A stretch of DNA of 64,000 bases from Patescibacteria group bacterium (GCA_048538215.1 JBLYPV010000001.1:397499-461498); one strand, 5' to 3'. Shown: positions 7,013 through 63,993, numbered from the stretch's first letter. Notes: generated from the letters alone by a model not told the origin. Made by a program: numbers and translations.

Positions 7013-7016
7013 AGTA

Positions 7017-21518: not shown

Positions 21519-21594
21519 TTGCGTTTGAGGACAAAAAATATATAATATTGCCACATACAAGATACAATTATTTTGTATGAGGTATGATTACACA

Positions 21595-21663
21595 TAGGTG
21601 ATTAGCTGGGGCTGGCTAGAGTAGTCCCCATTACAGATTAAAAATACCGGAAAGCTTTCCGGG
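21595..21663 (+). pseudogene. degenerate partial copy of tRNA-Val (5-prime two-thirds only)
   Basis: Shares GGTGATTAGCT, TGGCTAGAG, AGTCC, TTACA and CCGGAAAG blocks in order with the intact tRNA about 100 nt downstream. Lacks the T-arm and acceptor 3-prime strand. Confidence 0.45.
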
Positions 21664-21696
21664 ATATAAATGAGAGTAAGGTAGGCAATTATATAT

Positions 21697-21773
21697 GGGT
21701 GATTAGCTCAGTTGGCTAGAGCAGTCCGTTTACACCGGAAAGGTCGCAGGTTCAAGTCCTGCATCGCCCACCA
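21697..21773 (+). tRNA. tRNA-Val (anticodon TAC), CCA encoded
   Basis: Acceptor GGGTGAT/ATCGCCC, D-arm GCTC-AGTTGGCTA-GAGC, anticodon arm GTCCG-TTTACAC-CGGAA, T-arm GCAGG-TTCAAGT-CCTGC, 3-prime ACCA. Confidence 0.75.
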
Positions 21774-23313: not shown

Positions 23314-23503
23314 TAAAAGTTAGATTGCTAAACGGCTACTCAAAAAGCCGCCTTGGTGCAATCAATCTAGGCGAACCTAAACTGTCCAAGACGGCTTTTC
23401 GAGCCCGAACATTAAAAACCGCCCAGATTGATTGCAATACTATTGTAGCAAAAATACTTTTTGTATCCAAAGCAAATACTATGAACGCAATCGTCTTCTG
23501 ATG

Positions 23504-23650
23504 TCGAACCTCCGCCTCGGCGGAAAAGTCCTTGCCGTCGCCGCAGGCGACGACCACATTCACGGGGAAAAATCAGGGCAAACAGCATGGGCGGCACTTC
23601 GTGCCGCCCATGCATCCGTCGGTCAAAAGCCAACGAGTCAAATTCTGGTG
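23504..23650. repeat. IR1b: 147-bp inverted repeat (right copy)
   Basis: Perfect inverted match to 21769-21915. Overlaps IR2a by 3 nt. Confidence 0.9.
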
Positions 23651-46501: not shown

Positions 46502-48118
46502 TTATCTGTCTTTTGTAGATGAATGATCATTCAATTGGTAGCTCTCTTTACGAAAAGCTATTTGTCCCCGGCGATAGTAGTTGTAGCTTATAGCAATTCC
46601 AATAATAACAAACGCCATCCCATATATCTCCCAGCTTATATCATTCGTACTAGAACTAGCTTGAAACACACTCGCTTTCTGTGAGCCATCCATTGTTGGT
46701 AATTCAATCTCTGACAAAGCTTCTACCTTAGGGCTTTCGATGATCCCAGTGCTTTCACTACTCTGTCCTATGGGGACATAAGACACTGAGTGGGTATTCC
46801 CCATTACCATAGGATACTGAGCGCCGTATTGTTCGAGCACCTCCGTGTCAGAGTCTGCCGATGATAGAGCACCACTTCCTTGCTCTTGGGTATTTTTCTT
46901 GGCTTCGACCTGTGCTTGGAGGCGCTCCTTGGCTTGATTAATTGAGCTAATTAAATAGTCCTCCCCATCGATAAGCTCAAGTGTACTATAGCCATCCAAA
47001 TTAAATCCAAGAATATCTGAGTCAAGCCACATAGTATTATAAGCATTGATATAGCTATGATCTGGAAAACTATAGCCGGTATCTTCACTATCTGCTACGC
47101 TAATACGATAGCGAGAAAGCTCAAGATGATACTGAGAATTATTATGTATCCCCATGACGCCTGCTAGATCTGGGTGCATTACTATCTCCAAGGCAGGTGG
47201 GATGACCTTGATGGCTACCCTATCCACATCAGAATACTTGAGCACGCTGGCAGAAAAGGTGAGCGTATATTCGCCTGGATAGCGATAGCGATGAACAGCT
47301 TGGTTGCCTCTATCACTAGATCCATCACCCCAATTCCAACGAACAAGCGGATCCTTAATAATACCCCCCTCCAATCCATACACTTTCCCTACAAAATGAT
47401 AGCTCGCTCCTGCCATAAGCGTACGATCATTCCCCGCATCTGCTCGTATCTTTTTTGCTTCATAGCTATCGTAGAGCTCCAGATAGGTAACAGGCACCTC
47501 GACTTCATCTTCTATTGTCTTATCTTCCTCCTTATCGACTTCTTGATGTGAAGTATCTATATCTTCTTCTTTCTTTTCATCTTTATCCGAAGGAGCTTCT
47601 GTGTACTTTGCACGAATATTTGCCTCTCCCGGCGAAGCTTCCACCTCATACCACACATCTTCAATAAGCCCGATGCTATTACCATTACCATATCCGCCTG
47701 TTGCGGGGTCATAGCTTAGCTCAAATACTGTCTGGCCACTTGCATTTATCAGAGCTATTGCCTCTCCGGTATTTTTTAAAGAAAAAGCACTATCAAATAG
47801 TGCGCCACGATACTCTGGATATTTTTGTAAAAAGGCCTCTGGCTTATCTGCTACTATCCCATAAGTGCCCGGCTTGAGTATTTGCTCTCCATTTTCATAT
47901 ACACTGATCTTGTGATTGGTTCCCTGTTCGAAAAATCGATAGTCGGTAAATAGTATTTCCTCACTCCCTGCATTGTGTACCTCAATCCACTCATAGCCAC
48001 CATCGCTCCCCTCAGGGTTATAATGAACCTCTGTAATCCACACGCTCGCATTAGCACAAAATGGTAGTACGAAGCAAATAGTAAGTAGAAAAAATTCTAG
48101 CTTATTCCATCCTATCAT
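46502..48118 (-). CDS. lamin-tail-domain (LTD) protein, secreted with C-terminal TM anchor
   Basis: WITEVHYNPEGSDGGYEWIEVHN is the LTD signature. Signal peptide and C-terminal hydrophobic helix. Confidence 0.6.
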   Translation of the reverse strand: MIGWNKLEFFLLTICFVLPFCANASVWITEVHYNPEGSDGGYEWIEVHNAGSEEILFTDYRFFEQGTNHKISVYENGEQILKPGTYGIVADKPEAFLQKYPEYRGALFDSAFSLKNTGEAIALINASGQTVFELSYDPATGGYGNGNSIGLIEDVWYEVEASPGEANIRAKYTEAPSDKDEKKEEDIDTSHQEVDKEEDKTIEDEVEVPVTYLELYDSYEAKKIRADAGNDRTLMAGASYHFVGKVYGLEGGIIKDPLVRWNWGDGSSDRGNQAVHRYRYPGEYTLTFSASVLKYSDVDRVAIKVIPPALEIVMHPDLAGVMGIHNNSQYHLELSRYRISVADSEDTGYSFPDHSYINAYNTMWLDSDILGFNLDGYSTLELIDGEDYLISSINQAKERLQAQVEAKKNTQEQGSGALSSADSDTEVLEQYGAQYPMVMGNTHSVSYVPIGQSSESTGIIESPKVEALSEIELPTMDGSQKASVFQASSSTNDISWEIYGMAFVIIGIAISYNYYRRGQIAFRKESYQLNDHSSTKDR

Positions 48119-48187: not shown

Positions 48188-49801
48188 CTAGCTTTCTCCT
48201 ATCTGTTTAATAAAATCACTCAAATCATCATCTTTTTTTGCCTTGATATTCTTGTTCTCCTCTTTATTTGTTTTAGGAGCAGTGGAGGGGGTATTCTTTT
48301 GCTGAGCTATCTTTTCGTCTTGTGAATCGGGAAGATTTATATGGGCCAGCGCTTCTTTAAAATCGTGAGTCCCAGGCAAATCTACATCCTCTACCTTAGG
48401 CTTTGTTGCCCTTGGGGATTTTATTGTTTGCTTTCGCTTGCGATCAGGCATACCATTATTGGGCTTAATTGCGGGAGCACTCAAGCTTGCACTCATCCAA
48501 TTTGCAATTTCTTTTTCTACCTCTTCTCGTGAGCGAGCAAAATGAGCACGAGAATGAGCAATCACCTCTTGGCGCAAGCTTACTGCTGGTACTGGCAGTG
48601 GTGGTAAAGTACGCGCAGAAAATGGGGCTGATCCAGCTCCGTCAATCATCAGGGTAAGATATATTTGATAGCGATCGAGTGAGACAAAATCACTTGCCAA
48701 AAAGCGCATTCCAAATTCACGCTCAAATATTTCAGCATCAGTGGCCCCTACCCGAAAAGTAATCATCGTGCCTACATTGCCAAATACCGCCGCTCGCACC
48801 GTCTCAGGCATCTGCTCAATGTACTGATGGGCTAAGGTGAGATTGAGCTTATATTTTCTTGATTGTGAAAGAATATCAGCAAATGAATCATTGGCTAAAT
48901 TTTGGAATTCATCAATATAAAGATAGAAATTAGGCACTTGGCTCAATTCACCTTTACTCAAGCTGGCCCGTGACATCCCAGCCAAAAAGATTTTAGTCGT
49001 GAGCATCGATCCCAAGAGATTGGCATTTGCCTCACCCACCTGCCCAATCGATAAATTGACCAAAACAATCTTTTGCTCATCCATACACTGGCGTAGATCA
49101 AAAGAAGATTTACTCTGCCCTACAATATTGCGGATTACCGGATTAGAGGTAAATTGCCCAATTTTATTAAGAATTGCGCTATAAGCATCTCGCCGATAGG
49201 TATCCGACCAACTTGCATATTCTTGAGTCCAAAATTGCTTGACTACTGGGTCACTAATATTTGCTATCACCTTTTTTTGGAAAGGAATATCCACAAACAT
49301 ACGAGAAATTGAGAGCATGGTGCTATTAGGGTATTCCAAAAGAGCTAAAAGTGTATTGGATACTATGTGCTCCATTCTGTCGGAGAATGTCTCCTCACCC
49401 CATATTTTCTTAAAACTCGAAAGTAATCCTTGTGCCACAAGCGATCGCTTATCTGGGTCTACATCCTCCATTACATTAAAAGCCACTGGATGCTCAAAAT
49501 CAAAAGGAGCAATGTAGACTACATCGTCTACCCGATGAGCAGGGATATAATCCAAAAACGTATCTACTGCTGATCCATGTGGATCAATAAAGCACAAGCC
49601 ATTGCCATTTTGAATATCTTGGACTGCCAAATTTTCAAGCAGGGTAGACTTTCCCATCCCTGATTTACCAATCATATAAATATGCTTGGTGCGATCACTG
49701 TCTTTAATACCAAATTTTACTCGTTTGCCTCGCGCATCTGTCTCAGCAAAATAGGTAATATGGTCATCATTAGAACCAAGCTTGTTTGGATGAGTAAACA
49801 T
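48188..49801 (-). CDS. P-loop ATPase of the T4SS coupling-protein/FtsK-HerA superfamily (VirD4/TraG-like), no N-terminal TM
   Basis: Walker A MIGKSGMGKST, DPHG, Walker B-like YLYIDEFQNL, basic disordered C-terminus. Confidence 0.5.
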   Translation of the reverse strand: MFTHPNKLGSNDDHITYFAETDARGKRVKFGIKDSDRTKHIYMIGKSGMGKSTLLENLAVQDIQNGNGLCFIDPHGSAVDTFLDYIPAHRVDDVVYIAPFDFEHPVAFNVMEDVDPDKRSLVAQGLLSSFKKIWGEETFSDRMEHIVSNTLLALLEYPNSTMLSISRMFVDIPFQKKVIANISDPVVKQFWTQEYASWSDTYRRDAYSAILNKIGQFTSNPVIRNIVGQSKSSFDLRQCMDEQKIVLVNLSIGQVGEANANLLGSMLTTKIFLAGMSRASLSKGELSQVPNFYLYIDEFQNLANDSFADILSQSRKYKLNLTLAHQYIEQMPETVRAAVFGNVGTMITFRVGATDAEIFEREFGMRFLASDFVSLDRYQIYLTLMIDGAGSAPFSARTLPPLPVPAVSLRQEVIAHSRAHFARSREEVEKEIANWMSASLSAPAIKPNNGMPDRKRKQTIKSPRATKPKVEDVDLPGTHDFKEALAHINLPDSQDEKIAQQKNTPSTAPKTNKEENKNIKAKKDDDLSDFIKQIGES

Positions 49802-49914
49802 TAGCTCTATTGTACCCGAGAGCTAGCGAGTAACCAACAAAGCTACCTGTGGTATATGTATACAAAATAAAAAGCTTCTTTCTTTTCGCTTACTGTATTA
49901 TAATCAAAAAAGCT

Positions 49915-51066
49915 ATGAGCGATCGCTTGCAAATTATTATCCCCATTACTCTTTTCTATATTTGCCTTTTAGGTCTACCTTTGTTTGTGTCTGCTGATAC
50001 CTACGAGCCTCTGACCGCAAGTATCCCTGGTATGAAAGAAGCAGCCGAAATAGCATCTACCGGCAACTTCACCGAACTCATCAACACTATCTATAAACTA
50101 TCTATAGCCCTCTCTATAGCACTAGCAGTGATCATTCTAGTGATAGAAGGAGTCCGTTATAGTGCTAGTGCTATTCCAGGAGTTAAATCAGATATTAAAG
50201 AGCGTATCGCTCTTGTCTTTGGTGGATTAATTCTCTTAATTGGTGCTTATATGTTTCTTGCTCTTATTAATCCTATACAACTAGTAAATTTTGGTGACTT
50301 AGGTAAAAATAATATTCTCCCTTCTAATGTTGGTGTGGGGGTGGTTACGGATGCCACCGATCCTACAATCCTTGATGGGGTGGAGTTTGAGAGTGGTAAA
50401 ACAGGAGAAGAGGTAATGCAAGAAATATCCGAGCTATCCTGGCAGGAAACCCGGGAAATTGTAGCTGATAAAACTGACCTAGGCATCACTATAGATAGTG
50501 GCGGTACTATTGCAGAAGGTGATTATTCCCCCGTGAGCACAATAACTGTGAGTGAAGAAGGTCAACGTATTGTAGCTGCCGCTATTAAGCTATGTTCGGA
50601 TATACCAGAAAGTTGGGCAAGTAATACTGATTTGTATAAATTAATAGCCAAAGAAAGTAATGGCAAGATAGGTCTTTTAAATCACAAGTTTGATGATTAT
50701 AGAAAGCATGCTGGTCTTACATATGGTCGTATAGCAAGCGATATCCGTGGTAATTCATTTTACTACCAACATTGTTGCAGGGTTACCAAACAATCTACTC
50801 GTGAAGCACGAGAAAATGGTATACAAACGAGGTGTAATCCAAATACTCAATCACCTTTTATAGATCATGCTGGCGATTGTTTTTCTTCTGCTGGTATTGG
50901 TCAACTTACTGTTGCAAATATGGCCGAACGCCAACCAAGTGGTGTTCAAGGGTTTGGTGATACTTATGAGGAAATATGCGGTATGCTTCGATATATTAAA
51001 TATCGTCCAAATTATGGTACACCCGGCGCTGCGCTACAATTTCACCTAGAAAATAACTGGTACTAA
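49915..51066 (+). CDS. VirB2/TrbC-like pilin-like N-terminal domain fused to a putative cell-wall hydrolase (SLT/CHAP-like) domain
   Basis: Signal peptide plus two hydrophobic helices typical of T4SS pilins. The C-terminal 250 aa carries an ESNG...GLLN motif and conserved Cys/His; domain calls are tentative. Confidence 0.4.
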   Translation: MSDRLQIIIPITLFYICLLGLPLFVSADTYEPLTASIPGMKEAAEIASTGNFTELINTIYKLSIALSIALAVIILVIEGVRYSASAIPGVKSDIKERIALVFGGLILLIGAYMFLALINPIQLVNFGDLGKNNILPSNVGVGVVTDATDPTILDGVEFESGKTGEEVMQEISELSWQETREIVADKTDLGITIDSGGTIAEGDYSPVSTITVSEEGQRIVAAAIKLCSDIPESWASNTDLYKLIAKESNGKIGLLNHKFDDYRKHAGLTYGRIASDIRGNSFYYQHCCRVTKQSTREARENGIQTRCNPNTQSPFIDHAGDCFSSAGIGQLTVANMAERQPSGVQGFGDTYEEICGMLRYIKYRPNYGTPGAALQFHLENNWY

Positions 51067-51161
51067 GCAAATAATAAATTATAGAAAAATTAAAACAGCA
51101 TCATTATGCTGTTTTTCATTTTTTCTGGACGCACTATCTCGAGGCTCAGTCTTACTATTCT

Positions 51162-52226
51162 TTAGTCAGTAATACTCTCTCGATAGGGATCATTATCAAA
51201 TTTACTGGTATCTTGTTTGGAAATCTGCTCCTTAAGCAGTGTTTGAAAATCTTTCATTTTTTCTGGATCAGCTTCTATTGTGGGAGTAGCCATCTCTTGG
51301 CCCGCTCCTCCAGTAGGTGGCACTATCCCACTTCCTACAAATCCTGCTTGGGCTTGGGCTCCTGGATTAGCTCTTTGTTCTCCCCCCATAGATTGATATG
51401 CGTGCAAAGCGCTCGCTTGTTCTCGTGCTTCAATTTGAGCCTCTAAAGCTGTTTCACCAGCGTCAAAATTAATATCCACGCCTCGATTCTCGAGCCCAGT
51501 GGGTGAAATATGAGGTACTTCTTGCTTTGGTGATTCCTGGCTCTGTGTTTGTTGCTCTCCCCCGTCTATCGCCGGTGATTGATCAGCTTGGGCGCTCTTT
51601 GATGGCACAAACTCCAAAGAATCCGTATCTGTATGAGATACTTGATTGAGAGCATCTTGATTTTCTTCTATTACACTTTCTGTATCCTCCTGTTTTGTAT
51701 TACTATCTTCTATCACTATACCTTCTTGATCAAGAGCTTTTTCAAAATCAGTACCACTACTTACCATACCACTCTCCGTGTGTTTTAAAGCTTCTTCTAC
51801 AGAAATATCCTCAAAAGAATTATCCTTTTCCCCCTCTTTGCGGTATGGATTGGAGCTCGGAAGCGGTATTTCTACCTCCCCAAAGCGAGCTTCATCAGTA
51901 GATCGATACTGTATCTTACGCAAACTCTCACGAATACGAGAAAATACTTGTTCATCTACTTCAATAGCAATTTGCTCTGCTTGCTCCTGGCTCAAATTAA
52001 GCTGATCACGCAAATGGCGTACAAATTCATTACTTTTAATGAGCCCGAGCATGATCAAGCCACTGTACTCGATGAGAATACCAATACCATCAATGCGCAA
52101 ATTATGATTACGCCCGATTACTTCCAATTGCTTGACCATCGTATCCCCCGCGACTACTTTTTGAATATCTTCTGGTAATGCATCATAGCGCTCTTGAATT
52201 TGTTGTTTAGTGAATGGATTAGACAT
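51162..52226 (-). CDS. hypothetical protein with acidic disordered C-terminal half
   Basis: Structured about 110-aa N-domain, then an E/Q/S/D-rich low-complexity region. Confidence 0.45.
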   Translation of the reverse strand: MSNPFTKQQIQERYDALPEDIQKVVAGDTMVKQLEVIGRNHNLRIDGIGILIEYSGLIMLGLIKSNEFVRHLRDQLNLSQEQAEQIAIEVDEQVFSRIRESLRKIQYRSTDEARFGEVEIPLPSSNPYRKEGEKDNSFEDISVEEALKHTESGMVSSGTDFEKALDQEGIVIEDSNTKQEDTESVIEENQDALNQVSHTDTDSLEFVPSKSAQADQSPAIDGGEQQTQSQESPKQEVPHISPTGLENRGVDINFDAGETALEAQIEAREQASALHAYQSMGGEQRANPGAQAQAGFVGSGIVPPTGGAGQEMATPTIEADPEKMKDFQTLLKEQISKQDTSKFDNDPYRESITD

Positions 52227-52284
52227 AGTGGTATTGTAACAGATTACTAGATAGCTCTAAAAATACTTTTCCTCAGAGTAATAG

Positions 52285-54972
52285 CTAGGTTCTAATATTT
52301 ACATCTTCGGTGGCAACATCAGAAGCCAGCCCTTGTTCTGCAGCACTTTCTGCTTGATAGCCACGCTCGTATACATTCATAAGTGTAGCCTGATCCATAG
52401 AAGTGGTGGCCTCTCCTTTTGCCTGGAATTTAGCCTTAGCCACACCCACGAGCTGATCTTGAGCTCTCTTAGCCTCACGATTAGCAGAAGATTGTATAGA
52501 TTCAACCCAACGAGTAGCATCCTTAAGGCTTTTTTCAGCCCTCTCAATTTGAATATCTGATGCACTGCCAGATGATTGTAATAGCTCGAGATTTTGTTGT
52601 GCTTTATTGCGCTGTTTTACTGCATCTCTTGCCTTATCGGCATACTCTTCTTTGACATCGTGCAATGTGGTCATAAAATTATTCATTGCATCTTGATAAT
52701 TCTTAGAATCAAATACTTCCCGTGGTTTTCCGTCTGGTCCTTCCTGTGTTGAAGTAAAGGCATTTTTTACCAAGGCATCAAGATTTTTATACTCATTATT
52801 TTGTTTGAATTGCTCACCAAATTCCTTGATTGATTTTGTATTAATCATAAGCCCCATATCTTGATTCGTCAGATTACGAAGCAATTTATGGGAAATACTA
52901 TCCATTTTATTTATCTTATTACGAGCTTCGGCTGCCATTTGCTCGCGAGCATAAATTTGCTTATTTTTTGTGCCTTTTGTCTTTTTATCACCTCCTTCTA
53001 CAATTTCATATTTTTGTGCTGCCTCAGCATATCCACCTACGCCACCATCCAGTGTCCAGTTAAACCAGTTATCATTCTTTTCTAGAAGAGATTTATTTTC
53101 TGCGCGTAATCTGGTATTGGTACGATTCGCAAGCTCATCTGTATCAATCTGCTTTTCAACTTCTGAGCGCAAACTTTCTCGAGCAGCTTGCTCGGCCTGT
53201 TTAATTTCTTCTTGGTTTACCTGTCTTTTTGCCTCTAATTCTTCTCTCTTATTTTTGAATCCACCTCGTTCCTGTTCTAATTCAAGTAAACGCTTGGTAC
53301 GATTTGGCTTGAGCTTGGCTCGTTCATTTTCAATTTCATGTTGTCCACTAGCACCCCGCATCATAGCATCAAGTCCGCTATTAATCATCGACTGATGCTC
53401 TTCTTCCTCATATCTACCTCTGAGATTTTTAGACGTGTTATCTAGAGTATTCGTACGCAAATTCCCCTTACGAGTACGGCGAGCCACATTACTTTCTGCC
53501 ATGCCAAATTTAGCATTGGCGGCTGCATCACCTACCGTATATAGTACATTACCCAGTGCACGCTCGTGCCATTTATTTGATCGTAATTTTTCAGCTGTAT
53601 ATTCACTTTCTCGCGATAGGTGCCTCCCCCAATTACCTACAGAGGCACGCATCCCTCCACCAATCGTTTTCTTGCCTATCATTGCCCCTGCTCCTAAGGC
53701 ACCCCCAGCCGCTATACCGGCAACTCCCGTGATGCTACTTTGAATCCTACTTCCAATTCCACCTCCTCCTTCACACATTGCTTGGGCCTTACTATTAGCT
53801 ACACCAAGAATACCAAAAATAAAGCCCAAGTTGATCACAACGATAATCACTGTTTGTACTAAATCAGTAGTACCTCCCCCAAGGCCACTAGCCCCACCGA
53901 CTGGCCCGAGAATAAGGAGGAGGAGGTAGATTAAAAAGAGATAGACACAGACACAAAACGATTTATTAAACATATGACTCAACCAGGATTGAAAGCCATT
54001 GAGATTAGGAATAAAGTAGCTTACAAAAGCAAGTGGTGAGATGATAATCAAAATAATCAAATACAGAGTACGAGTGATAAACATAAATCCCGTCTTAAAC
54101 AAACTCCAGCCTGCTACCACCGCCACAGTAAGAATAATTACATTGAGTGCCATAACATAACCCTCACCCTTTGCAACAATGTCCTTAACCGTTTGTATTG
54201 AAAGAATACCATCTACATTACCTGATTCCACCAAAAGCAAGCTTCTAACAATCGGGGCCGATGGGCTTGACACATTAGCAAGGCTGATATCTGCTCCCCT
54301 ATCCCCGCTACCGACCCGCAAAGACTTACTTCCTAATTTTTCTGAAACAGCACTTTTGGAAGGTGTGGTTTCTGTAATCTGCGTATAAAAGAATTTACCC
54401 ATAATATTCCCTGCGTCAATAATTGCTCGCGAGAAAAAGAATGAAAAATTGAGCAGTAGAGCAATAATAATCAGCCGAGTGAGAACCTCTTTCCATCCCA
54501 TGTTGCCCTGCTTGAGAGAAAAGCCTGTAATCATCATCAAAGCCGCCGCGATAATCCCGAGAATAAAGGCCATATTGGCAAGATCACGCATAATTATCCA
54601 GGCATCCCTAATATAGGGCATATTATAGAATTCTGGATTAAGGGTAAAATTAATAAAAACATCAAATACAGCTCCTGCTCCAATTAAAATCAGAGCACTT
54701 AAATAGACAATCCCCCCCGTCAAACACGAGCCGATATAACTTGACCATGTATCACCACAAGTACCAATCTTAGGTATGGAAGGGTCCATTGATGCCCCCT
54801 TATCGCTTGTATCTGAGCTTCCAGTCTCTTGACCAGTTCCTACGTTTTGAATCCCAGCTGTGGGAGCTCCTGTGGTGGGTGTTTGAGCTTGAGCCATTAG
54901 TACCCCTACCCCAAAAAGCCCCACAAATAGGATACAAATTAACAGGAAAACTCTCTGTAAACGATGCGCCAT
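52285..54972 (-). CDS. giant polytopic membrane protein, VirB6/TrbL-like, with about 400-aa charged coiled-coil C-terminus
   Basis: Signal peptide, at least 8 TM helices, G-rich loops, long K/E/Q/R-rich C-terminal coiled coil. Confidence 0.45.
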   Translation of the reverse strand: MAHRLQRVFLLICILFVGLFGVGVLMAQAQTPTTGAPTAGIQNVGTGQETGSSDTSDKGASMDPSIPKIGTCGDTWSSYIGSCLTGGIVYLSALILIGAGAVFDVFINFTLNPEFYNMPYIRDAWIIMRDLANMAFILGIIAAALMMITGFSLKQGNMGWKEVLTRLIIIALLLNFSFFFSRAIIDAGNIMGKFFYTQITETTPSKSAVSEKLGSKSLRVGSGDRGADISLANVSSPSAPIVRSLLLVESGNVDGILSIQTVKDIVAKGEGYVMALNVIILTVAVVAGWSLFKTGFMFITRTLYLIILIIISPLAFVSYFIPNLNGFQSWLSHMFNKSFCVCVYLFLIYLLLLILGPVGGASGLGGGTTDLVQTVIIVVINLGFIFGILGVANSKAQAMCEGGGGIGSRIQSSITGVAGIAAGGALGAGAMIGKKTIGGGMRASVGNWGRHLSRESEYTAEKLRSNKWHERALGNVLYTVGDAAANAKFGMAESNVARRTRKGNLRTNTLDNTSKNLRGRYEEEEHQSMINSGLDAMMRGASGQHEIENERAKLKPNRTKRLLELEQERGGFKNKREELEAKRQVNQEEIKQAEQAARESLRSEVEKQIDTDELANRTNTRLRAENKSLLEKNDNWFNWTLDGGVGGYAEAAQKYEIVEGGDKKTKGTKNKQIYAREQMAAEARNKINKMDSISHKLLRNLTNQDMGLMINTKSIKEFGEQFKQNNEYKNLDALVKNAFTSTQEGPDGKPREVFDSKNYQDAMNNFMTTLHDVKEEYADKARDAVKQRNKAQQNLELLQSSGSASDIQIERAEKSLKDATRWVESIQSSANREAKRAQDQLVGVAKAKFQAKGEATTSMDQATLMNVYERGYQAESAAEQGLASDVATEDVNIRT

Positions 54973-55123
54973 TACAGCTTTACTATAGCACAGAAGTCCC
55001 CCCTAATAACAGTGAATTATCCTCGTTTTTTAGTATACTAGATAAACAATGTATTGCATTTTTTGTCAAATATAGTAGAATGGCTGGAAGTGAATCTTTT
55101 ACCCTTAAGAAAGGAGGTGCGTA

Positions 55124-55699
55124 ATGTTGCGCATTCTAATGATGATTGCTGGACTGCTCTTTTCGAGCGTCCAAGCTCAAGCCGCCACCGTCGCCCAAGT
55201 GTCGACGGGGATTACGGACAATACCCGGGCCGGACAAGTGCTTGCCCAGTGCTATAGTGAGTGGCTCAGGGGCAAGCCCAATCAGTGGCGGCTCGATGAC
55301 CCCATCTGTGTGCGAGCGTACTGGCTCATGAGCCAAGCCTACCACACAAAAAGCTACAAGAAACAACACGGTCAGGTCCTACTAATAATGGTAGACACCG
55401 GCAAACTCTACGAGAGCAACCCTGCATTTGCAGAGAAACTCGACGAGTTTACTGCTCGGGTCAGAAGCGGGGAGTTCCGAGAGGATCCCTATTCCGCTGA
55501 GCTCGAAAACAAGCTCCCCCGCACCACCACCGCCGCCGGCGCGCCCTGCGACGATGCCGGCTGGATGGGTTGTATTGGGGTCGAATTCCAGACTATCAGC
55601 ACCTGGTGTACTGATAGTCATGGAAATCGAGTAAAGGTATCAGATGAAGTGTGTCGGCAAACTCCCGACTACACACTTCATAAAAAAGCGCACTACTAG
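55124..55699 (+). CDS. GC-rich (about 56 percent) secreted Cys-containing hypothetical protein inside the T4SS-like cluster
   Basis: SD AAGGAGGTG, signal peptide. Composition is clearly foreign relative to the flanking genes. Confidence 0.5.
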   Translation: MLRILMMIAGLLFSSVQAQAATVAQVSTGITDNTRAGQVLAQCYSEWLRGKPNQWRLDDPICVRAYWLMSQAYHTKSYKKQHGQVLLIMVDTGKLYESNPAFAEKLDEFTARVRSGEFREDPYSAELENKLPRTTTAAGAPCDDAGWMGCIGVEFQTISTWCTDSHGNRVKVSDEVCRQTPDYTLHKKAHY

Positions 55700-55822
55700 T
55701 CTAGCCGAGCCACACGACCACCTAAGGAATATCTCCCCCGCTATGTCTCAGATGTGGCGGGGGTTTTCATTTATACTTTTCTATAATTTGGTAATTATCA
55801 GACTTATCACTATAATAGAGCT

Positions 55823-56254
55823 ATGCGTTATGAAGTGCCCCAATTTATTGAAATAGAAGACAAAATCGTAGGCCCTCTTACCTGGCGACAATTTGTCTAT
55901 GTTGCTGGTGGAGTAGGTGGTAGTGTTTTAGCCTGGTTTTTTCTACCAACTATTCTTGCGGTACCTATCGTAGTGGTCCTCCTTGCTTTAGGTGGAGCTC
56001 TTGCTTTTTATGAGCACAACAAACAGCCCTTTATCGTTTTACTCGAGGCCTTTATTAGCTACACTATGCGTAGCAAGCTCTATATCTGGCAAAAGCGCGC
56101 CCCTCAAGCATCTACTGAGGATCAAAATATCGAGAGCCAAGCAGAGGCAATAATCAATCCACAGCCTTATGTGCCAAAGCTTTCTGATTCCAAGCTCAAA
56201 GATCTCTCCTGGGCACTCGATATCGAAGCCCGTAATCGAGGCGAGGTGCTATAG
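55823..56254 (+). CDS. PrgI/VirB3-like small 2-TM T4SS protein
   Basis: MRYEVPQFIEIEDKIVGPLTWRQFVYV matches the PrgI-family start (vPk.i..ye.KI.G.lT.RQf.y), followed by two TM helices. Confidence 0.55.
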   Translation: MRYEVPQFIEIEDKIVGPLTWRQFVYVAGGVGGSVLAWFFLPTILAVPIVVVLLALGGALAFYEHNKQPFIVLLEAFISYTMRSKLYIWQKRAPQASTEDQNIESQAEAIINPQPYVPKLSDSKLKDLSWALDIEARNRGEVL

Positions 56255-56308
56255 AGTGTATATTGTGCTTTCGAGAATACCCTCAAAGCTGATATACTAT
56301 AGAAAGTT

Positions 56309-56944
56309 ATGGCAAGCCAAGCACAATCACAGAGTTTTGTTCCAATCAAAGAAATTCGAAATGGTACCGTCATCCTCGATGATGGATCTTTCAATACCAT
56401 TTTGCTCGTTACCTCCATGAATTTTGCACTCAAGTCCTACGATGAGCAACGAGCAGTGATGGGACAATTTCAAAATTTTCTCAATTCAATAGAATTTCCC
56501 ATACAAATTAGTATTCAATCGCGCCACCTCGATATTCGTCCCTATTTAGCGAGCCTAGAAGAGAAACGACGAGATGAACAAAATGATTTGATTAAGATGC
56601 AGATAAGTGAATATTCTCAATTCATACAAAATTTTACTGATTCAGTAAATATTATGGAAAAACGATTTTTTATCGTAGTTTCCTATACTCCTGCCATCTT
56701 AAATCAGGGTGGTCCCAAGAGCTTTGTTGAGACCCTTTTGGGAAAAGGGTCTTCAAATAAAATGCTGAGTGACGAAGAATTTGAAGAGACAAAATCCCAA
56801 CTCGAGCAACGCACAGATTTGGTAATCGGTGGTATTTCTCGTACTGGGCTCAAAGCCGTACGGCTTGGGACAGAAGAAGCTATTGAGGTTTTGTATCGTA
56901 TCTTTAATCCAGGCGAGAGCGAGAAGCCCGTACAGCTTAATTAG
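56309..56944 (+). CDS. VirB4-like N-terminal domain encoded as a separate 211-aa ORF
   Basis: PIKEIRNGTVILDDGSFNTILLVTSMNFALKSYDEQRAVMGQFQNFLNSIEFPIQISIQSR resembles the extreme N-terminus of Gram-positive-type VirB4 (TraE/PrgJ). Confidence 0.5.
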   Translation: MASQAQSQSFVPIKEIRNGTVILDDGSFNTILLVTSMNFALKSYDEQRAVMGQFQNFLNSIEFPIQISIQSRHLDIRPYLASLEEKRRDEQNDLIKMQISEYSQFIQNFTDSVNIMEKRFFIVVSYTPAILNQGGPKSFVETLLGKGSSNKMLSDEEFEETKSQLEQRTDLVIGGISRTGLKAVRLGTEEAIEVLYRIFNPGESEKPVQLN

Positions 56945-57020
56945 CTTGATAGGTATTAGTCACTCGCTACTGACAATTATCCCTTTTTTTTAAAGGCTAA
57001 TCATTTATACTAAGAATACT

Positions 57021-58826
57021 ATGGGATTGTTTGGCAAGAAAAAAAATAAAAATAAAAAAATAGATATCGCCCCGATTCTACCCAAAGAGATATACCAATC
57101 AGCCGTCTTAGACTTGAAAGATATTATTGCTCCTTCAGCTCTTGAGATACGCCCTAAAGAAGTGAGCTTGGGAGAGAAAATGCTCCGTACTTTTTTTGTT
57201 ATCTCTTATCCTAAATATCTTTCCGATAGCTGGTTTTCGCCAATTGTTAATCTAGATAAAGAATTTGATGTGTCTATCTTTATCCACCCCATTGATACCC
57301 AAACGGTCTTACGAAAATTCCAAAAGAAAGTGGCCGAGGTGCAGTCTCAGATTTATACCCGAGAAAAAAAAGGCTTAGTACGTGATCCACAGCTAGACTC
57401 TGCCTACACCAATCTCGAAGAATTACGCAACAAGCTTCAGCAAGCCACTGAAAAATTGTTTGATGTTGGTATCTACATTTCTGTCTATGGCAATAATGAA
57501 AAAGAGCTTGATAAGATTGAGTCCGAGATACGATCAATCCTTGAGTCAAAATTGATTTATGTCCGCCCAGCCACCTATCGACAAGAAGAGGGCTTTCGCT
57601 CTATCTTGCCCCTCAATCAAGACCATCTTCGAGTACACTCCAAGCTTAATTCTGCCCCCCTTTCTTCTGTTTTTCCTTTTGTTTCTTTCAATCTCTCATC
57701 AAATCAAGGAATTCTTCACGGTATTAATCGTCATAACAGTAGCCTCATTCTTTTTGATCGCTTTTCACTCCCCAATTATAATTCGGTGACATTCGCTACC
57801 TCTGGTGCAGGTAAATCATATGCTATCAAGCTCGAGATTTTGCGTACCCTAATGTTTGATACCGAGGTAATCGTCATCGATCCTGAGCGAGAATTTGAAT
57901 ATCTCGCTGAGGCAGTAGGAGGCAGGTACTTCAATATTTCACTTGCTTCAGAGCACCATATCAATCCTTTTGATTTGCCCGCACCTCGCCCTGATGAGTC
58001 TCGTGCCAATGTATTGCGAAGCCACATTGTTTCTTTGGTAGGACTTTTTAGATTAATGCTTGGTGGGCTCACCCCAGAAGAAGATGCCATCATAGACAGG
58101 GCTATTACCGAAACATACGCTCTTAAAGATATCACCCCTGATTCTAATTTTGAAAATAGCGAGCCTCCACTTCTTTCTGATTTTGAGCTGGTACTTGCGG
58201 GGCTTGAAGGGTCTGGATCTCTTGTAGCACGCATTTCTAAATATACTTCAGGTACCTGGTCAGGGTTTCTCAATATGGCTTCAAATGTAGATATTAATCA
58301 AAAAGTGGTAGTCTTTTCTATTCGTGATATGGAAAATGAGTTACGCCCAGTTGCGATGTATTTGATCACCCAATACATATGGAACGCCATCCGCCAAGAG
58401 CTACGCCGGCGACTTTTGGTAATCGATGAGGCCTGGACTATGATGCAATCCGAAGATGCAGCAAGCTTTGTATTTGGCATTGCCAAACGAGGACGAAAAT
58501 ACTATCTCGGGCTTGCCACTATCACCCAGGATGTGGCCGACTTCTTGGGCTCTCCCTATGGCGTGCCTATTATCACCAACAGTAGTATGCAATTATTACT
58601 CAAGCAGTCTCCCACTACAATTGACAGAGTACAGGAAACATTCCACCTCACCGACGAAGAAAAGTATCTCCTCCTTGAGGCTAATGTGGGAGAAGGAATC
58701 TTTTTTGCAGGTACTAAGCACGTGGCAATCAAAATTATCGCAAGCTACACCGAAGATCAAATCATCACCTCTGACCCTTCTCAAATTCTCGCCATCAAAG
58801 AAAGCAAAAAAATGCTTACTCAGTAG
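57021..58826 (+). CDS. T4SS VirB4/TraE-family ATPase (C-terminal 600 aa)
   Basis: CagE/TrbE/VirB N-domain (GEKMLRTFFVISYPKYLSDSWFSPI), Walker A FATSGAGKSY, Walker B LLVIDEAW, C-terminal motifs. Confidence 0.8.
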   Translation: MGLFGKKKNKNKKIDIAPILPKEIYQSAVLDLKDIIAPSALEIRPKEVSLGEKMLRTFFVISYPKYLSDSWFSPIVNLDKEFDVSIFIHPIDTQTVLRKFQKKVAEVQSQIYTREKKGLVRDPQLDSAYTNLEELRNKLQQATEKLFDVGIYISVYGNNEKELDKIESEIRSILESKLIYVRPATYRQEEGFRSILPLNQDHLRVHSKLNSAPLSSVFPFVSFNLSSNQGILHGINRHNSSLILFDRFSLPNYNSVTFATSGAGKSYAIKLEILRTLMFDTEVIVIDPEREFEYLAEAVGGRYFNISLASEHHINPFDLPAPRPDESRANVLRSHIVSLVGLFRLMLGGLTPEEDAIIDRAITETYALKDITPDSNFENSEPPLLSDFELVLAGLEGSGSLVARISKYTSGTWSGFLNMASNVDINQKVVVFSIRDMENELRPVAMYLITQYIWNAIRQELRRRLLVIDEAWTMMQSEDAASFVFGIAKRGRKYYLGLATITQDVADFLGSPYGVPIITNSSMQLLLKQSPTTIDRVQETFHLTDEEKYLLLEANVGEGIFFAGTKHVAIKIIASYTEDQIITSDPSQILAIKESKKMLTQ

Positions 58827-60009: not shown

Positions 60010-60765
60010 CTATTTTGTTAGTCGAGTGAATATTTCTACCCGCGCAATAAAATTATCGAATGGCTTGCGCCAAGAAAAGAAAACCGTACGCTCCCCCGTG
60101 CCCACCAAATGATCTACATAGGTACGAGAGATATGCTCTACATTTTCGTCCTGATTATATAATACTACTATAATTTCTAAGTCCTTTAGAGGGTCTACTC
60201 CTGTATTGCGCAGATCTACTTCAAGTGAAGGGCTCGTCTCAAGCTTATCAAGACGATAGCCAATCATTTCTACTACCTTACTCTGTGCTTCATCTTTATA
60301 CCAAGAATAGCCTTCCTCAAAAGTAAGATAGCTTCGTTCAATTTTTCGATTGTCGGTACTTACTGCTTGGTGGAATATTATCCGTCGCTCTCGCGGAGCA
60401 AGATCTATACTATCATTCACTTCTGCAACAAGCATATTGTCTTTATTAAAACCTCGAAGGGTGTACTGTAGGGTGGTACCAATTTCAAAATTAGGATTCT
60501 CTATATAAGCAGCCATATTATATACTCCTGGGCCTACCTCAAATGACCGTGCCCATACGATATTAGGGCTTGTAGCCTTAAAGGAACACACCTTCGTACA
60601 GGCCCCTCCACAATCTACGCCTTCTTCCAGACCATTCTGTTTACCATCAAAACAACTTGGTGGATTATATAATACGAAAAAATAGAAAAAGGCAGTAATA
60701 ATAATTAGACCCAAAATAAGGTAGGCGATGATGATAGCTTGTCGTTTGCGTCCCCAGGCACTCAT
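60010..60765 (-). CDS. hypothetical membrane-anchored protein
   Basis: N-terminal TM helix, Cys-rich segment CFDGKQNGLEEGVDCGGACTKVC, otherwise beta-rich. Abuts rodA/ftsW. Confidence 0.45.
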   Translation of the reverse strand: MSAWGRKRQAIIIAYLILGLIIITAFFYFFVLYNPPSCFDGKQNGLEEGVDCGGACTKVCSFKATSPNIVWARSFEVGPGVYNMAAYIENPNFEIGTTLQYTLRGFNKDNMLVAEVNDSIDLAPRERRIIFHQAVSTDNRKIERSYLTFEEGYSWYKDEAQSKVVEMIGYRLDKLETSPSLEVDLRNTGVDPLKDLEIIVVLYNQDENVEHISRTYVDHLVGTGERTVFFSWRKPFDNFIARVEIFTRLTK

Positions 60766-60804
60766 AGCTACAGTATACTACAAAAATATATCCTCCACGA
60801 GATA

Positions 60805-61971
60805 TTAATGTAAGGCATACAAAGCAGGCAGGCTCTTGTGAGTAAGATAGTGGATCATAGCTCCACCCCCTGTAGAAAGAAAATCTATGTGCTGATCCAG
60901 ATTATGTTCTCGAAGTAAATCGATGGTGTTACCTCCTCCTACTATTGATTCTCCTGAAATTTCTTTAATCTTTTCTGCCAAAGCAATAGTGCCTTGCTTA
61001 TACCCACCCTCAAGGTAGCCCAAGGGGCCATTCCACACAAGTAATGGAGCATCGATACGTGCATCAATAAAGTTTGTAATATCTTCTGTAGCTATATCAT
61101 AAATAGCATCATCAGGAGCAACAAGGGATATATCTTTGGTGCGCACCTCGCCTTTCGAATCTTCACATACGACCTGGCTAGGAAGTATCAAACGTGCATC
61201 ACCAAGCAAAAGATGAGCAAGCTCTTGTGTATCTTCATCAAGCTTATCTTCATATACCGAACGGCCAATTTCATATCCTGCAAGCTTATACAGTGTATTT
61301 GCTAGCGCTCCCCCTACATACACCGCCTCATATGAATCAAGTAGTTGGCGGATAAGTGGAAGCTTGGTAGAAGCTTTATTACCACCAATAATTGCCACCG
61401 ATCCCCTGCGTGGCTCAAGGGCTATTTGTAAATTTTCCACCTCTTCACTACAGGTAAATCCAGCAAGAGCACGGGTACATTTACGAGGAAGGGCATCAAG
61501 AGACATATGTTTGCGATGGCTTGCCGCAAAAGCCTCATTAATATATAGCTCTCCCAAGAGAGCTAGCTTGGAGGCCATATCTTCATCGTTTGCCTTTTCC
61601 TTATCTGTTGCACGTACATTGTCTAAGAGCACCACCGCTCCTGCCTCTGCCTGAGCAATCCATTCTCTAAGCTTCTCTAGCGAAGCATCAAAGTCTTGTG
61701 CAAAAAAATTTTCAAAGAAATCTAATTCTATCTCTTGCTTTAGTCGCTCGTAGACTGCTTGTAGGTGCTCTGTTTTCTCCCTACCTTGATGTGCAATAAT
61801 AATCACTATAGCTTCTTGATCCACTAAATAGTGCAAGGTGGGCAGTATGCGCTCAAGCCGATAATCGTCTGCAATTTCTCCTGTTTCAGTGAGTGGCACA
61901 TTTATACTTGCCCGTACAAATACTATTTTAGTTTGCCAATTCGATATCTCGCATATACTAGGTAAAATCAT
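60805..61971 (-). CDS. pgk: phosphoglycerate kinase
   Basis: N-terminal RASINVPL....I.DD.R....LPT, hinge and C-terminal GGGA motifs. Confidence 0.9.
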   Translation of the reverse strand: MILPSICEISNWQTKIVFVRASINVPLTETGEIADDYRLERILPTLHYLVDQEAIVIIIAHQGREKTEHLQAVYERLKQEIELDFFENFFAQDFDASLEKLREWIAQAEAGAVVLLDNVRATDKEKANDEDMASKLALLGELYINEAFAASHRKHMSLDALPRKCTRALAGFTCSEEVENLQIALEPRRGSVAIIGGNKASTKLPLIRQLLDSYEAVYVGGALANTLYKLAGYEIGRSVYEDKLDEDTQELAHLLLGDARLILPSQVVCEDSKGEVRTKDISLVAPDDAIYDIATEDITNFIDARIDAPLLVWNGPLGYLEGGYKQGTIALAEKIKEISGESIVGGGNTIDLLREHNLDQHIDFLSTGGGAMIHYLTHKSLPALYALH

Positions 61972-61983
61972 AAAGCAATTACA

Positions 61984-62763
61984 TTAGGATTTCTCCACAT
62001 TCTTACAAATCCGCTCAAGCTCTTGCTTATCAAGACTGGCTCGCCCCACAAGTACCCCATCAATACCTGGGACAGATGCTAAATCAGCTATATTATCTCC
62101 GTCTACTGAGCCCCCATATAAGACAGGAATGCGCTTGGCGCGATTAGTGCTCATATATGTACTCATAATTTTTTCAAGAAGCAGGTAGGTAGAAAATAAC
62201 TCATCCGCTGTTATGGCTCGCGTGGCTTTGCTACCGATTGCCCAAAGTGGTTCATATGCAATAGTGAGCAAGCCAAGCTTTGTTTTTTTATTGGCAAAAG
62301 GAGCCAATACTGTATTGAGTTGTGTCTCAAGCACATCAATATATTCGCCTGCACTATCACGCTCTTGTTCTCCAATACAAACTATCATTGGCATATTTTC
62401 ATATATAGCTTTTTTAATTTTTTTGCCGATACTTTTCTCATCTACTCCGAAATAGTGCCTCCGCTCTGAGTGCCCAATAAGTACTGCCTGTGCTCCTACA
62501 CTTCTTGCCATCTCTATAGATGTCTCTCCTGTATATGCTCCCTCTTCTTCATAAAAAATATTTTGTGCCACTATGGTAGGAGCTTTTCCTGTTCGAGAGG
62601 CGAGCGGAGAGAGATAAACGGTAGGTGGGGCATAGGAAAGTACAATCCCAGGGTATTTTGACTGTATGCGACCATAAGCCCTCTGTAATTTTTTTGCTTC
62701 ACTCAGGCTCTGTGGATTCATCTTCCAATTCCCTACAAGGATAAAACGATTGTCTTTCTTCAT
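61984..62763 (-). CDS. tpiA: triosephosphate isomerase
   Basis: GNWKMN, IGHSERR, AYEPLWAIG active-site motifs. Confidence 0.9.
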   Translation of the reverse strand: MKKDNRFILVGNWKMNPQSLSEAKKLQRAYGRIQSKYPGIVLSYAPPTVYLSPLASRTGKAPTIVAQNIFYEEEGAYTGETSIEMARSVGAQAVLIGHSERRHYFGVDEKSIGKKIKKAIYENMPMIVCIGEQERDSAGEYIDVLETQLNTVLAPFANKKTKLGLLTIAYEPLWAIGSKATRAITADELFSTYLLLEKIMSTYMSTNRAKRIPVLYGGSVDGDNIADLASVPGIDGVLVGRASLDKQELERICKNVEKS

Positions 62764-62784
62764 AATCTCTATTCTAGCACTTTC

Positions 62785-63993
62785 TTATGTGTGGAGCAGA
62801 CTAAGCACCTCATCAATTGCAATTTTCCCTTGATAGGCAAGGAGTAGTGCTCGGGGTAAGAGATATTCTTTTTGTGCGCGCTTAAGTGTGTGTTCAAATT
62901 GCACAAAGCTCTCTCCTGAGCGCTGTGAATCCGCTATCACCTCCCCTAAAGGCATAAGAGCCCGAGCATAGCTATAGCTATCCTTACGTGCACTTACTCG
63001 ATGATAGGCGCTCCGCCAATTAAACCATGAGTGTCTTCCTTTCTCTATGGGTACCTTCCAAACAATATCAGCCCAAGCATTTGGCACTATACTTTCACCC
63101 GAGCGTCTCACATAATCTTGAAAATAGGGGAGAGAGAGATAGCGTTCAATGCTTTCAATTTCATTCTTCTTAAGTGTTCGCTGTCTTATTTGTGTAGAAT
63201 CTGTATTAAGGGTAGAGAATCGATGAGTGATGAGATTATATGTGAGCACACGAGCAATTGATTCAGCTCTTACTCCCTGGGCGAGCAACCCACGCACAAT
63301 ACTAGCCACTCCTTGATCGGCTATTCCCACAAGCCACTTACGACAAGCAAGATTATATGCAGGAAGAATCAGACTAGCGTACAGAGGAGCTAAAATTATC
63401 GCATCATACCAATTATCCACTGCTTGTATATCCTTATCCGGTCGCTTGGAATATGTTAGCTGATCGATTCCATTCAAGTCATATTCAATATGTGCTTCAA
63501 GTATTACGCTACGTTTGATAGCTCCAATAGCCTGAGCAACCCTATACAATACAAAGCTTTTCCCTGATTGTGCCAGGCCACTGATAATAAGCATTCCTCG
63601 ATCCTGTCCAAAGGCGTGTACAAGTTCGTATACATTTTCGTCATCAAGCCCTGCTCGAACAAGTGCCACACTTGCAGGATTAGCTTCTGTATCCTCTATA
63701 CTACAACTTATCCCTTGCGAATGAGGCACAAAGGCAATTCTAAATCTGCGCGTACGATTATCTTTATCCAAGCCAGAGGCAATCACCTCTTGCATTTCTT
63801 CCACCTCATCGAGTGGTGTGTCGGATAGATAGCGGAGCTTGAGATACAGTGCGTATGCGATTGCATGAGGCAAATCTATGAGCGGATACTCTCTCTGGGA
63901 AATGGTAGCGAATACGCGTAGCCGATTGGCTTCTGTACGCAAGGTAATTCGAGATGCACACTTACTATCTCCTAAGGCAATGAGCTCTTGCAA
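62785..63993 (-). CDS. GspE/PilB-family secretion/pilus ATPase homologue with degenerate Walker A; N-terminus beyond the window
   Basis: RFRIAFVPHSQGISCSIE (RxS..P...GE..V.R) and MLIISGLAQSGKSFVLY in place of GPTGSGKTTTL. The ORF is open to the window edge. Confidence 0.55.
   Translation of the reverse strand: MQELIALGDSKCASRITLRTEANRLRVFATISQREYPLIDLPHAIAYALYLKLRYLSDTPLDEVEEMQEVIASGLDKDNRTRRFRIAFVPHSQGISCSIEDTEANPASVALVRAGLDDENVYELVHAFGQDRGMLIISGLAQSGKSFVLYRVAQAIGAIKRSVILEAHIEYDLNGIDQLTYSKRPDKDIQAVDNWYDAIILAPLYASLILPAYNLACRKWLVGIADQGVASIVRGLLAQGVRAESIARVLTYNLITHRFSTLNTDSTQIRQRTLKKNEIESIERYLSLPYFQDYVRRSGESIVPNAWADIVWKVPIEKGRHSWFNWRSAYHRVSARKDSYSYARALMPLGEVIADSQRSGESFVQFEHTLKRAQKEYLLPRALLLAYQGKIAIDEVLSLLHT

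Follow-up and report, generated by a model that had tools for sequence, protein, structure and literature searches.

Does a conjugation-type gene cluster in the chromosome of a Patescibacteria group bacterium move DNA between cells, or does it serve another kind of exchange? The cluster in question occupies positions 48188-58826 of a 64,000-nucleotide stretch of DNA (JBLYPV010000001.1:397499-461498, assembly GCA_048538215.1), hereafter the window; it comes from a 622.8-kb contig of a Paceibacteria-type metagenome-assembled genome and so samples 64 kb out of at least 623 kb. We report the identities of its genes, their chromosomal context, their conservation, and the history of their rearrangement. 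A preliminary description had read the cluster as a type IV secretion system (T4SS) comprising a coupling-protein-like P-loop ATPase, a pilin-like protein fused to a putative wall hydrolase, a protein with a disordered acidic tail, an 895-aa VirB6-like protein, a PrgI/VirB3-like protein with two transmembrane (TM) helices, and a VirB4 ATPase. Listing and translation of open reading frames (ORFs) yielded nine ORFs on both strands, including all six listed genes, each with family support, and two that had been overlooked, one encoding a 211-aa TrsD-like protein (56309-56944) and the other a 191-aa secreted protein (55124-55699). Profile searches with Pfam and NCBIfam directly support VirB3, VirB4, and the type IV coupling protein (T4CP), and support VirB6 at the family level; the NCBI pipeline already gives correct names to five of the cluster genes, and the contig carries NCBI proteins MFW0871295-302. 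As the best overall explanation, we consider it highly probable that the cluster is a chromosomal, MPF_FATA-derived T4SS of the Patescibacteria clade, used most likely for exchange with a host and not for conjugation.

The VirB4 ATPase (57021-58826, plus strand, 601 aa) comprises the middle and C-terminal ATPase domains of the MPF_FATA/CD1110 type. It retains intact Walker motifs and scores 365.3 bits (cutoff 325; positions 183-734) against the NCBIfam equivalog "VirB4-like conjugal transfer ATPase, CD1110 family." A TrsD/TraC-like protein of 211 aa, homologous to the VirB4 N-domain and free-standing, is encoded on the plus strand at 56309-56944 and matches the NCBIfam models Mbov_0397 VirB4 (positions 101-233; E 3.7e-12), CD1110 (positions 2-120), and TrsD (E 0.0028). 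The two ORFs are in different frames and 76 nt apart, and the gap reads as an ordinary intergenic spacer. PrgI/VirB3 (55823-56254, plus strand, 143 aa) has two TM helices within residues 27-64 and passes PF12666 (E 1.3e-13; 51.8 bits against a gathering threshold [GA] of 27). To place these proteins among relatives, we scanned one genome per species and collected 80 loci (L001-L080), all from Paceibacteria/Parcubacteria-type metagenome-assembled genomes, whose VirB4 is 71-76% identical to that of the window. PrgI was found in 76 of the 80, and the TrsD-like protein is a separate ORF beside virB4 in 75-78 of them. Two further loci, L084 and L088, are closer still (VirB4 88-89% identical), and the best plasmid-borne VirB4 matches, CD1110-type proteins of Firmicutes and Actinobacteria, reach 29-35% identity.

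The extended VirB6/TrbL-like protein (52285-54972, minus strand, 895 aa) is polytopic, with about eight hydrophobic TM helices in residues 1-440 followed by a charged helical tail of about 450 aa. The protein itself has no Pfam TrbL match, and scores above the threshold of that model come from homologues P0155 (33% identical over 91% of the query) and P0144. In NCBIfam it matches the VirB6-like membrane family of the Mycoplasma integrative and conjugative element (ICE) with E 2.3e-6, and five of 42 family members match the CD3337/EF1877 mobilome membrane family. When the AlphaFold2 (AF2) model of residues 1-480 (pLDDT 74) was compared with the PDB, the five best Foldseek matches were all TrwI/VirB6 of R388 (probability up to 0.99, TM-score 0.43-0.45, E 0.04-0.3). 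An hhalign comparison of the VirB6 family with PrgH was weak (E 0.005, low probability). On the strength of the homologues' TrbL matches, the NCBIfam and Foldseek results, and a PrgH-like position, the protein is accepted as a probable extended VirB6. Its large size had been thought unusual; the median VirB6 length in relatives is 798 aa, so 895 aa is normal in the class.

Beside VirB6 lies the gene for a conserved T4SS-associated acidic protein (51162-52226, minus strand, 354 aa). In the family alignment, some 100 aa at the N terminus form a conserved helical domain, an extended acidic stretch of low complexity follows, and the C-terminal DPYRE is invariant; residues 101-350 carry a net negative charge, in keeping with the acidic tail first described. 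Its homologues in relatives are located between VirB6 and PrgI. It has no Pfam or PDB match, and hhalign found no similarity to PrgF, PrgG, or PrgL of pCF10. This DPYRE-motif accessory protein is a mildly new item. The second overlooked ORF (55124-55699, plus strand, 191 aa) encodes an orphan secreted protein with the signal peptide MLRILMMIAGLLFSSVQAQA; no homologue was present in any fetched relative locus, and its membership in the T4SS is uncertain.

The pilin gene (49915-51066, plus strand) encodes a 383-aa VirB2-like pilin whose C-terminal part, some 180 aa, is an extracellular domain. As called mechanically from GTG 49849, the ORF is 405 aa long; ATG 49915 is the likelier start, and the 383-aa protein is 100% identical to P0121, which NCBI names "pilin." TM prediction and the AF2 model yield a signal peptide and a two-helix hairpin. 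A hidden Markov model (HMM) of the Paceibacteria pilin family matches the protein with E 8.5e-18 and detects no further pilin gene in the window. The AF2 model of the fusion, built from a 7-sequence alignment, is of low confidence (pLDDT 61.6) and shows the helical hairpin; Foldseek gave zero matches to it in the PDB and BFVD. Sequence searches of the PDB with the T4CP, the VirB6 family profile, the pilin fusion, and the pilin-tail domain profile likewise returned nothing meaningful.

The tail of the pilin contains an aggregation-promoting-factor (Apf) C-terminal-like domain (50521-51063, plus strand) with the motifs ES..G and SSAGIGQL, which matches NCBIfam AggPromo_Cterm with E 4.6e-5 (23.8 bits, under the curated cutoff of 40). 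Its homologues comprise 180 representatives at E<=1e-3, and among 55 sampled, 51 match AggPromo_Cterm, many bear PG_binding_1, LysM, or PG_binding_3, and two match the Mycoplasma ICE pilin-like model. Because of the AggPromo_Cterm matches and the co-occurring PG_binding and LysM domains, we regard the tail as a wall-associated domain, and it is presumed to bind or act on peptidoglycan. We found no catalytic domain in it (no Pfam match at all, SLT, lysozyme, and CHAP included), hhalign found no similarity between the Apf-like domain and PrgK of pCF10, and the resemblance of its ES...GxGQL motifs to GH23 is by eye only. Thus, of the fusion proposed earlier, the pilin and its wall-associated tail stand and the hydrolase is putative, the support being Apf-like similarity with no SLT, lysozyme, or PDB match. 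Nor is the fusion as such unusual: C-terminal extensions are normal in the pilins of relatives (median about 194 aa) and very diverse, forming 34 clusters among about 50 sequences. The 180-aa tail belongs to the same domain family as Apf of lactobacilli and the LysM and PG_binding wall proteins; unlike these, its N-terminal partner is a T4SS pilin hairpin and not LysM or PG_binding, and its score stays below the family cutoff.

The cluster pilin has a paralogue, P0124. This second "pilin" of 432 aa is encoded beyond the window, on the 622.8-kb contig to which the window belongs. The 97-aa core module of the cluster pilin (50062-50352, plus strand) is 100% identical to that of P0124, whose signal peptide and C-terminal domain are unrelated to those of the cluster pilin. 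That the core is identical and both leader and tail differ suggests that modules were exchanged recently. The P0124 tail has no Pfam match and no meaningful PDB match; by eye only, its SxHx6D ... HV motif is LAS/M15 zinc-peptidase-like.

At the left end of the cluster is the gene for a VirD4-like T4CP (48188-49801, minus strand, 537 aa; NCBI MFW0871295.1). Three Pfam models pass (TrwB_AAD_bind, 33.1 bits against GA 20.5; T4SS-DNA_transf, 25.4 against 20.1; TraG-D_C, 25.8 against 22), and the TrwB_AAD_bind match spans residues 35-362, a P-loop NTPase domain with an inserted all-alpha domain. Walker A begins at residue 45, Walker B (FYLYIDE) lies at residue 292, and the C-terminal tail is lysine-rich and then acidic. 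Neither this protein nor any of its 120 best homologues has a TM or hydrophobic N-terminal anchor, which makes it a soluble T4CP. Coupling proteins that lack a TM domain are known from some Gram-positive systems, e.g., TraJ of pIP501. The family is large, with about 8000 scored homologues in Patescibacteria, and in relatives the gene is usually unlinked to the T4SS and placed in an envelope neighborhood (FtsW, Bac_transf, epimerase, glycosyltransferases); it lies within 10 kb of virB4 in one of 80 fetched loci. Published counts give 148 of 5,713 T4CPs next to T4SS genes (PMC12102498). Solubility of the whole examined Patescibacteria T4CP family is mildly new, and we did not find it discussed in the parts of that article that we read.

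The T4CP gene directly adjoins that of a secreted protein with lamin-tail (LTD) and PKD domains (46502-48118, minus strand), and the order T4CP, LTD/PKD protein, sugar transferase, epimerase is constant in the close relatives L084-L086. LTD domains have been reported as DNA-binding in some extracellular proteins. A functional tie between the LTD/PKD protein and the T4CP is possible.

We then considered the setting of the cluster. Its left flank contains RuvA, a bestrophin-like protein, an epimerase, a sugar transferase, and the LTD/PKD protein, and its right flank contains FtsW, a 251-aa protein of no named family, PGK, TIM, and a PilB-like ATPase. GC content is 0.40-0.45 across the cluster, equal to that of the flanks and without anomaly, and none of the six tRNAs that Rfam finds in the 64-kb window is inside the T4SS block. 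Among 49 window ORFs scanned, including the 20 largest outside the cluster, none has a relaxase domain and no integrase adjoins the cluster. Those 20 ORFs include a single recombinase, a large serine recombinase (21730-23313) that lies 26 kb from the cluster, and the housekeeping genes between the two are syntenic in L086. These results bear out the earlier claims of housekeeping flanks and of no adjacent relaxase or integrase. The claim that the system is chromosomal and not part of an ICE, as in other lineages of the candidate phyla radiation, is likewise backed by gene order in relatives and by published work (PMC12102498).

A T4SS cluster is present in every fetched relative, and comparison of these loci with the window shows both what is shared and what has moved. 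In the representative loci inspected, where synteny is strongly conserved, the order is UvrD-KsgA-...-F10-F9-VirB6-acidic-PrgI-TrsD-VirB4-F1-pilin-pilin, followed by Jag-YidC-RnpA-DnaA-DnaN; a position by the replication-origin genes, typical of Paceibacteria but not obligatory, has been published (PMC12102498). Family queries from relatives found no DnaA or DnaN in the window, where, unlike in the fetched dnaA/dnaN-linked clusters, the genes lie between the T4CP gene and ftsW. The window also differs in that its pilin, a single copy in the locus, is upstream of VirB6 and not downstream of VirB4. Family HMMs for F1, F9, F10, and F14 found no match in six-frame translations of the window or of L084.

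L084 and L088 share much of this layout. The T4SS lies beside ftsW in the window, L084, and L088, and directly by the T4CP gene in two of the three (the window and L084). In L084 (VirB4 89% identical) the order is FtsW ... VirB4<-TrsD<-PrgI<-acidic<-VirB6<-pilin (185 aa), then T4CP->LTD/PKD->sugar transferase->epimerase, and in L088 (88%) it is T2SSE-TIM-PGK-unk251-(pilin-Apf)-pilin-VirB6-acidic-PrgI (inverted)-TrsD-VirB4-FtsW. Relative to both, the VirB6 and acidic-protein block of the window is inverted, as it is relative to the Paceibacteria clusters at large, with the additional 191-aa ORF at the junction; we found no convincing inverted repeats bordering the block. The flanks are syntenic with relatives. 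Identity between the window and L084/L088 is 88-89% for VirB4, 66-72% for FtsW, and 47% for PGK and TIM. The much higher conservation of VirB4 than of FtsW, PGK, and TIM speaks for strong purifying selection and against decay. What is mildly new is a layout linked to ftsW and the T4CP gene, reduced, and partly inverted; the classification of the system is unchanged by it.

The families missing from the window carry no functional annotation and are conserved next to the T4SS in most Paceibacteria, e.g., in L008 (2642-5656 and 11845-12894). Upstream of VirB6 lie F9, of about 555 aa, and F10, of about 300 aa and bearing bacterial TSP3 repeats; F1 (about 340 aa) lies directly downstream of VirB4 in 78 loci. 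Neither F1 nor F9 has any Pfam match. F1, F9, and F10 are candidates for missing VirB8-like or wall-spanning parts. On the right side of the window, the 251-aa protein, PGK, TIM, and a PilB/T2SSE-like ATPase form a conserved block on the minus strand (60010-63993; ATPase ORF 62785-63993). The same block borders the T4SS in L088, so that a type IV pilus ATPase lies near the T4SS in this sublineage.

How does the system compare with known ones? The Patescibacteria-clade T4SS, a Gram-positive-style system of these ultra-small bacteria, is described as nested in MPF_FATA, chromosomal, and mostly relaxase-free, with TrsD, PrgI, VirB6, and VirB2-like pilins (Quinonero-Coronel et al. 2025, PMC12102498; PMC12857230); the clade is derived from monoderm MPF_FATA conjugation machinery. 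The window agrees with it in having VirB4 with an adjacent TrsD, PrgI/VirB3, VirB6, a VirB2-like pilin (PF18895 type), a wall-active partner, and a VirD4-like T4CP, in its chromosomal location with no relaxase found, and in its high identity to Paceibacteria VirB4. Membership in the clade is judged here from VirB4 similarity. The cluster adds no new kind of system and is a largely ordinary member of a recently well-described class.

More distant systems share parts of this plan. The VirB6-VirB3-VirB4 order is collinear with PrgH-PrgI-PrgJ of pCF10, the free-standing VirB4 N-domain protein is of the type seen in the pGO1/pIP501 TrsD-TrsE subclass (as in pGO1), and the window VirB6 and VirB4 match the models of the Mycoplasma ICE (Mbov_0395/0396/0397). 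Unlike monoderm MPF_FATA conjugation systems, the window has no relaxase or surface adhesin that we found, its VirB4 is only 29-35% identical to theirs, its T4CP lacks a hydrophobic N-terminal segment, and its T4SS is chromosomal and core, not on a mobile element. VirB6 is about three times longer than PrgH of pCF10 (895 versus 266 aa). With a polytopic core and a large hydrophilic C-terminal domain it resembles the extended VirB6 of Rickettsiales and MPF_FA, which total 700-900 residues (PMC12857230). Unlike those, it has a charged, helical tail whose conservation is poor, with 33% identity even to close relatives, and the resemblance noted here is one of layout.

Taken together, these features suggest a working model. 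The extended VirB6 and PrgI/VirB3 would form a membrane translocon, which the two-piece VirB4 (the TrsD-like N-domain protein and the 601-aa ATPase) would energize. The Sec-exported VirB2-like pilin would build, or anchor at, a wall-spanning or pilus-like conduit, with its Apf-like domain outside the membrane and probably binding or remodeling peptidoglycan, and the soluble, anchor-less T4CP would probably hand substrate to the machine or accept it from there. How the system assembles, whether it forms a pilus, and what it carries in which direction are the parts of this model that we infer. With no relaxase found and the genes behaving as core genes, the system most likely exchanges macromolecules with the host of a presumed epibiont, either by effector export or by uptake of host material, and is likely a host-interaction conduit rather than a conjugation machine. 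Epibiotic growth of the saccharibacterium Southlakia epibionticum requires T4SS genes but not the T4CP (Wang et al. 2023, cited in PMC12102498, PMC12857230), and a preprint describes tubular structures, possibly T4SS pili, where a parasite meets its host (bioRxiv 10.64898/2026.06.21.733656).

Several points weigh against this reading. The host-interaction role is carried over from the literature, and the T4CP has possibly been exapted to another role (PMC12102498). The match of the pilin to Pfam T4SS_pilin is below threshold (E 0.0057; 17.1 bits against GA 26.6), and any hydrolase activity of its tail would be conjectural. No VirB8-like PrgL/TraM component was found in the cluster, and F1, F9, and F10 are missing here, so that the apparatus is perhaps a reduced one, or one completed by genes located elsewhere in the genome. 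The relaxase scan covered the 64-kb window, and a relaxase may sit elsewhere in the genome of at least 623 kb.

Other explanations were weighed against the same evidence. We regard it as very improbable that the cluster is a conjugative element, an ICE or the remnant of an integrated plasmid, that moves DNA to other cells. VirB4, TrsD, PrgI, VirB6, and the T4CP do all descend from monoderm conjugation systems, the T4CP bears a "DNA-binding" all-alpha domain, and 103 of 3,035 Patescibacteria genomes carry relaxases (PMC12102498); yet VirB4 is 71-89% identical across the class at fixed chromosomal positions, GC is uniform, and the only recombinase stands 26 kb off behind housekeeping genes. With the flanks syntenic in relatives and no relaxase or adjacent integrase among the ORFs scanned, we rejected the ICE reading. 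It is hardly credible that the cluster is a decaying, nonfunctional remnant. The features that might be taken for decay are the spread of VirB4 homology over two ORFs that differ in frame and lie 76 nt apart, the inverted VirB6 block, and the three families not found; all ORFs and Walker motifs are intact, however, and VirB4 remains 88-89% identical to that of relatives whose PGK is only 47% identical. The two-ORF VirB4 is itself no sign of decay, because it is conserved in nearly all of the 80 relatives, as counted above, and corresponds to the TrsD arrangement, an N-domain gene next to virB4, that is known in Patescibacteria and the pGO1 subclass (PMC12102498). A pseudogene reading of the two-piece VirB4 was rejected on the conserved arrangement.

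Two further readings concern the nature of the exchange with a host. A machine that imports host nucleic acids or nucleotides, similar to ComB of Helicobacter or archaeal Ced and with the T4CP pulling inward, is a sub-case that we entertain as a tentative possibility. Patescibacteria lack nucleotide biosynthesis, a 2026 preprint (bioRxiv 10.64898/2026.06.21.733656) describes feeding on host RNA and possible T4SS pili, and a FEMS review speculates on such uptake; the weak matches of VirB4 to the CedB DNA-import model and of the T4CP to the CedD DNA-translocating ATPase model fall far under the model cutoffs, however. In S. epibionticum, moreover, the T4CP is dispensable and deletion of comEC has no effect on viability (PMC12102498). 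Somewhat more doubtful is a system for effector export or for breaching the host wall, in which pilin-linked wall domains would serve as tools, as in bacteria-killing T4SSs. The Apf-like wall-associated domain on the pilin, the different C-terminal domain on the paralogue with the identical core, and the essential peptidase and lysozyme genes by virB4 in S. epibionticum (PMC12102498) would fit such a role. The pilins, however, have Sec signal peptides, so their export needs no T4SS, no catalytic domain or fold match was obtained for the pilin tails, and the domain could equally open the bacterium's own wall in the manner of VirB1.

Transcription signals, assessed by consensus scans only, divide the cluster further than had been thought. 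Described earlier as a single block, it instead comprises at least four or five transcription units over both strands. A bidirectional terminator-like hairpin (51092-51115) lies between the convergent pilin and acidic-protein genes, and a strong one (55735-55763, plus strand; 13-bp stem, 8 GC pairs, T-run) lies 3′ of the 191-aa ORF; a 70-aa ORF that overlaps a terminator is probably spurious. The divergent VirB6 and 191-aa genes are separated by a 151-bp spacer (54973-55123). Directly upstream of the PrgI start codon is a promoter-like TTGGTA-17-TATAAT (55788-55816, plus strand), which is a consensus match only, as the count of promoter-like sites equals the expectation from shuffled sequence. 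The TATAAT (55811-55816) is only 7 nt before the PrgI ATG (55823), and the PrgI-TrsD(-VirB4) transcript could be leaderless.

Elsewhere in the window, the serine recombinase (21730-23313, minus strand) has Resolvase, Recombinase, and Zn-ribbon domains and abuts tRNA-Val (21697-21773). Most of its gene is enclosed by two GC-rich palindromes of 29 nt each (21806-21834 and 23585-23613), and a second copy of the tRNA 5′ end (21587-21607, against 21688-21708) lies 101 nt upstream. The region 21587-23613 may be a small integrated element or remnant unrelated to the T4SS. A 698-aa protein (17489-19585, plus strand) combines a cytochrome cd1 (NirS-like) heme domain (E 1.9e-70) with a cytochrome b5-like domain; Patescibacteria are generally described as without respiratory chains, and for such a genome the protein looks out of the ordinary. 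At 3740-8567 (minus strand) are an AcrB-type RND transporter (1090 aa, E 3e-181) and an adjacent HlyD-like membrane-fusion protein. Pumps of this type are usually tied to diderm envelopes, and the organism here is presumed to be monoderm. Lastly, a 1091-aa protein (38834-42109, minus strand) gives several weak glycoside-hydrolase matches (GH42, GH10, GH catalytic core), and its gene adjoins tRNA-Arg where the GC content of the window is lowest (0.38).

What does the locus mean for these organisms? The Patescibacteria T4SS is thought to underlie obligate host dependence and is essential in the one genetically tractable species. The locus shows that its gene set is reducible, F1, F9, and F10 being absent in the window and L084, and that the system is movable from a dnaA-proximal site to the ftsW/T4CP neighborhood. 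We also raise the idea, which we think unlikely as matters stand, that the VirB2-like pilin hairpin of Paceibacteria is a portable anchor or delivery module onto which different wall-active cargo domains are recombined; chimeric pilins, if built into or displayed on a T4SS pilus, would then be a new mode of enzyme display at the epibiont-host interface. The two pilins of this genome and the diverse extensions in relatives prompt this idea, and the repeated co-location of the otherwise unlinked T4CP with the T4SS in this sublineage would argue further that the soluble T4CP works with the machine. The locus offers experimental handles in a T4CP physically linked to its machine and in a pair of pilins with an identical core and different extracellular domains.

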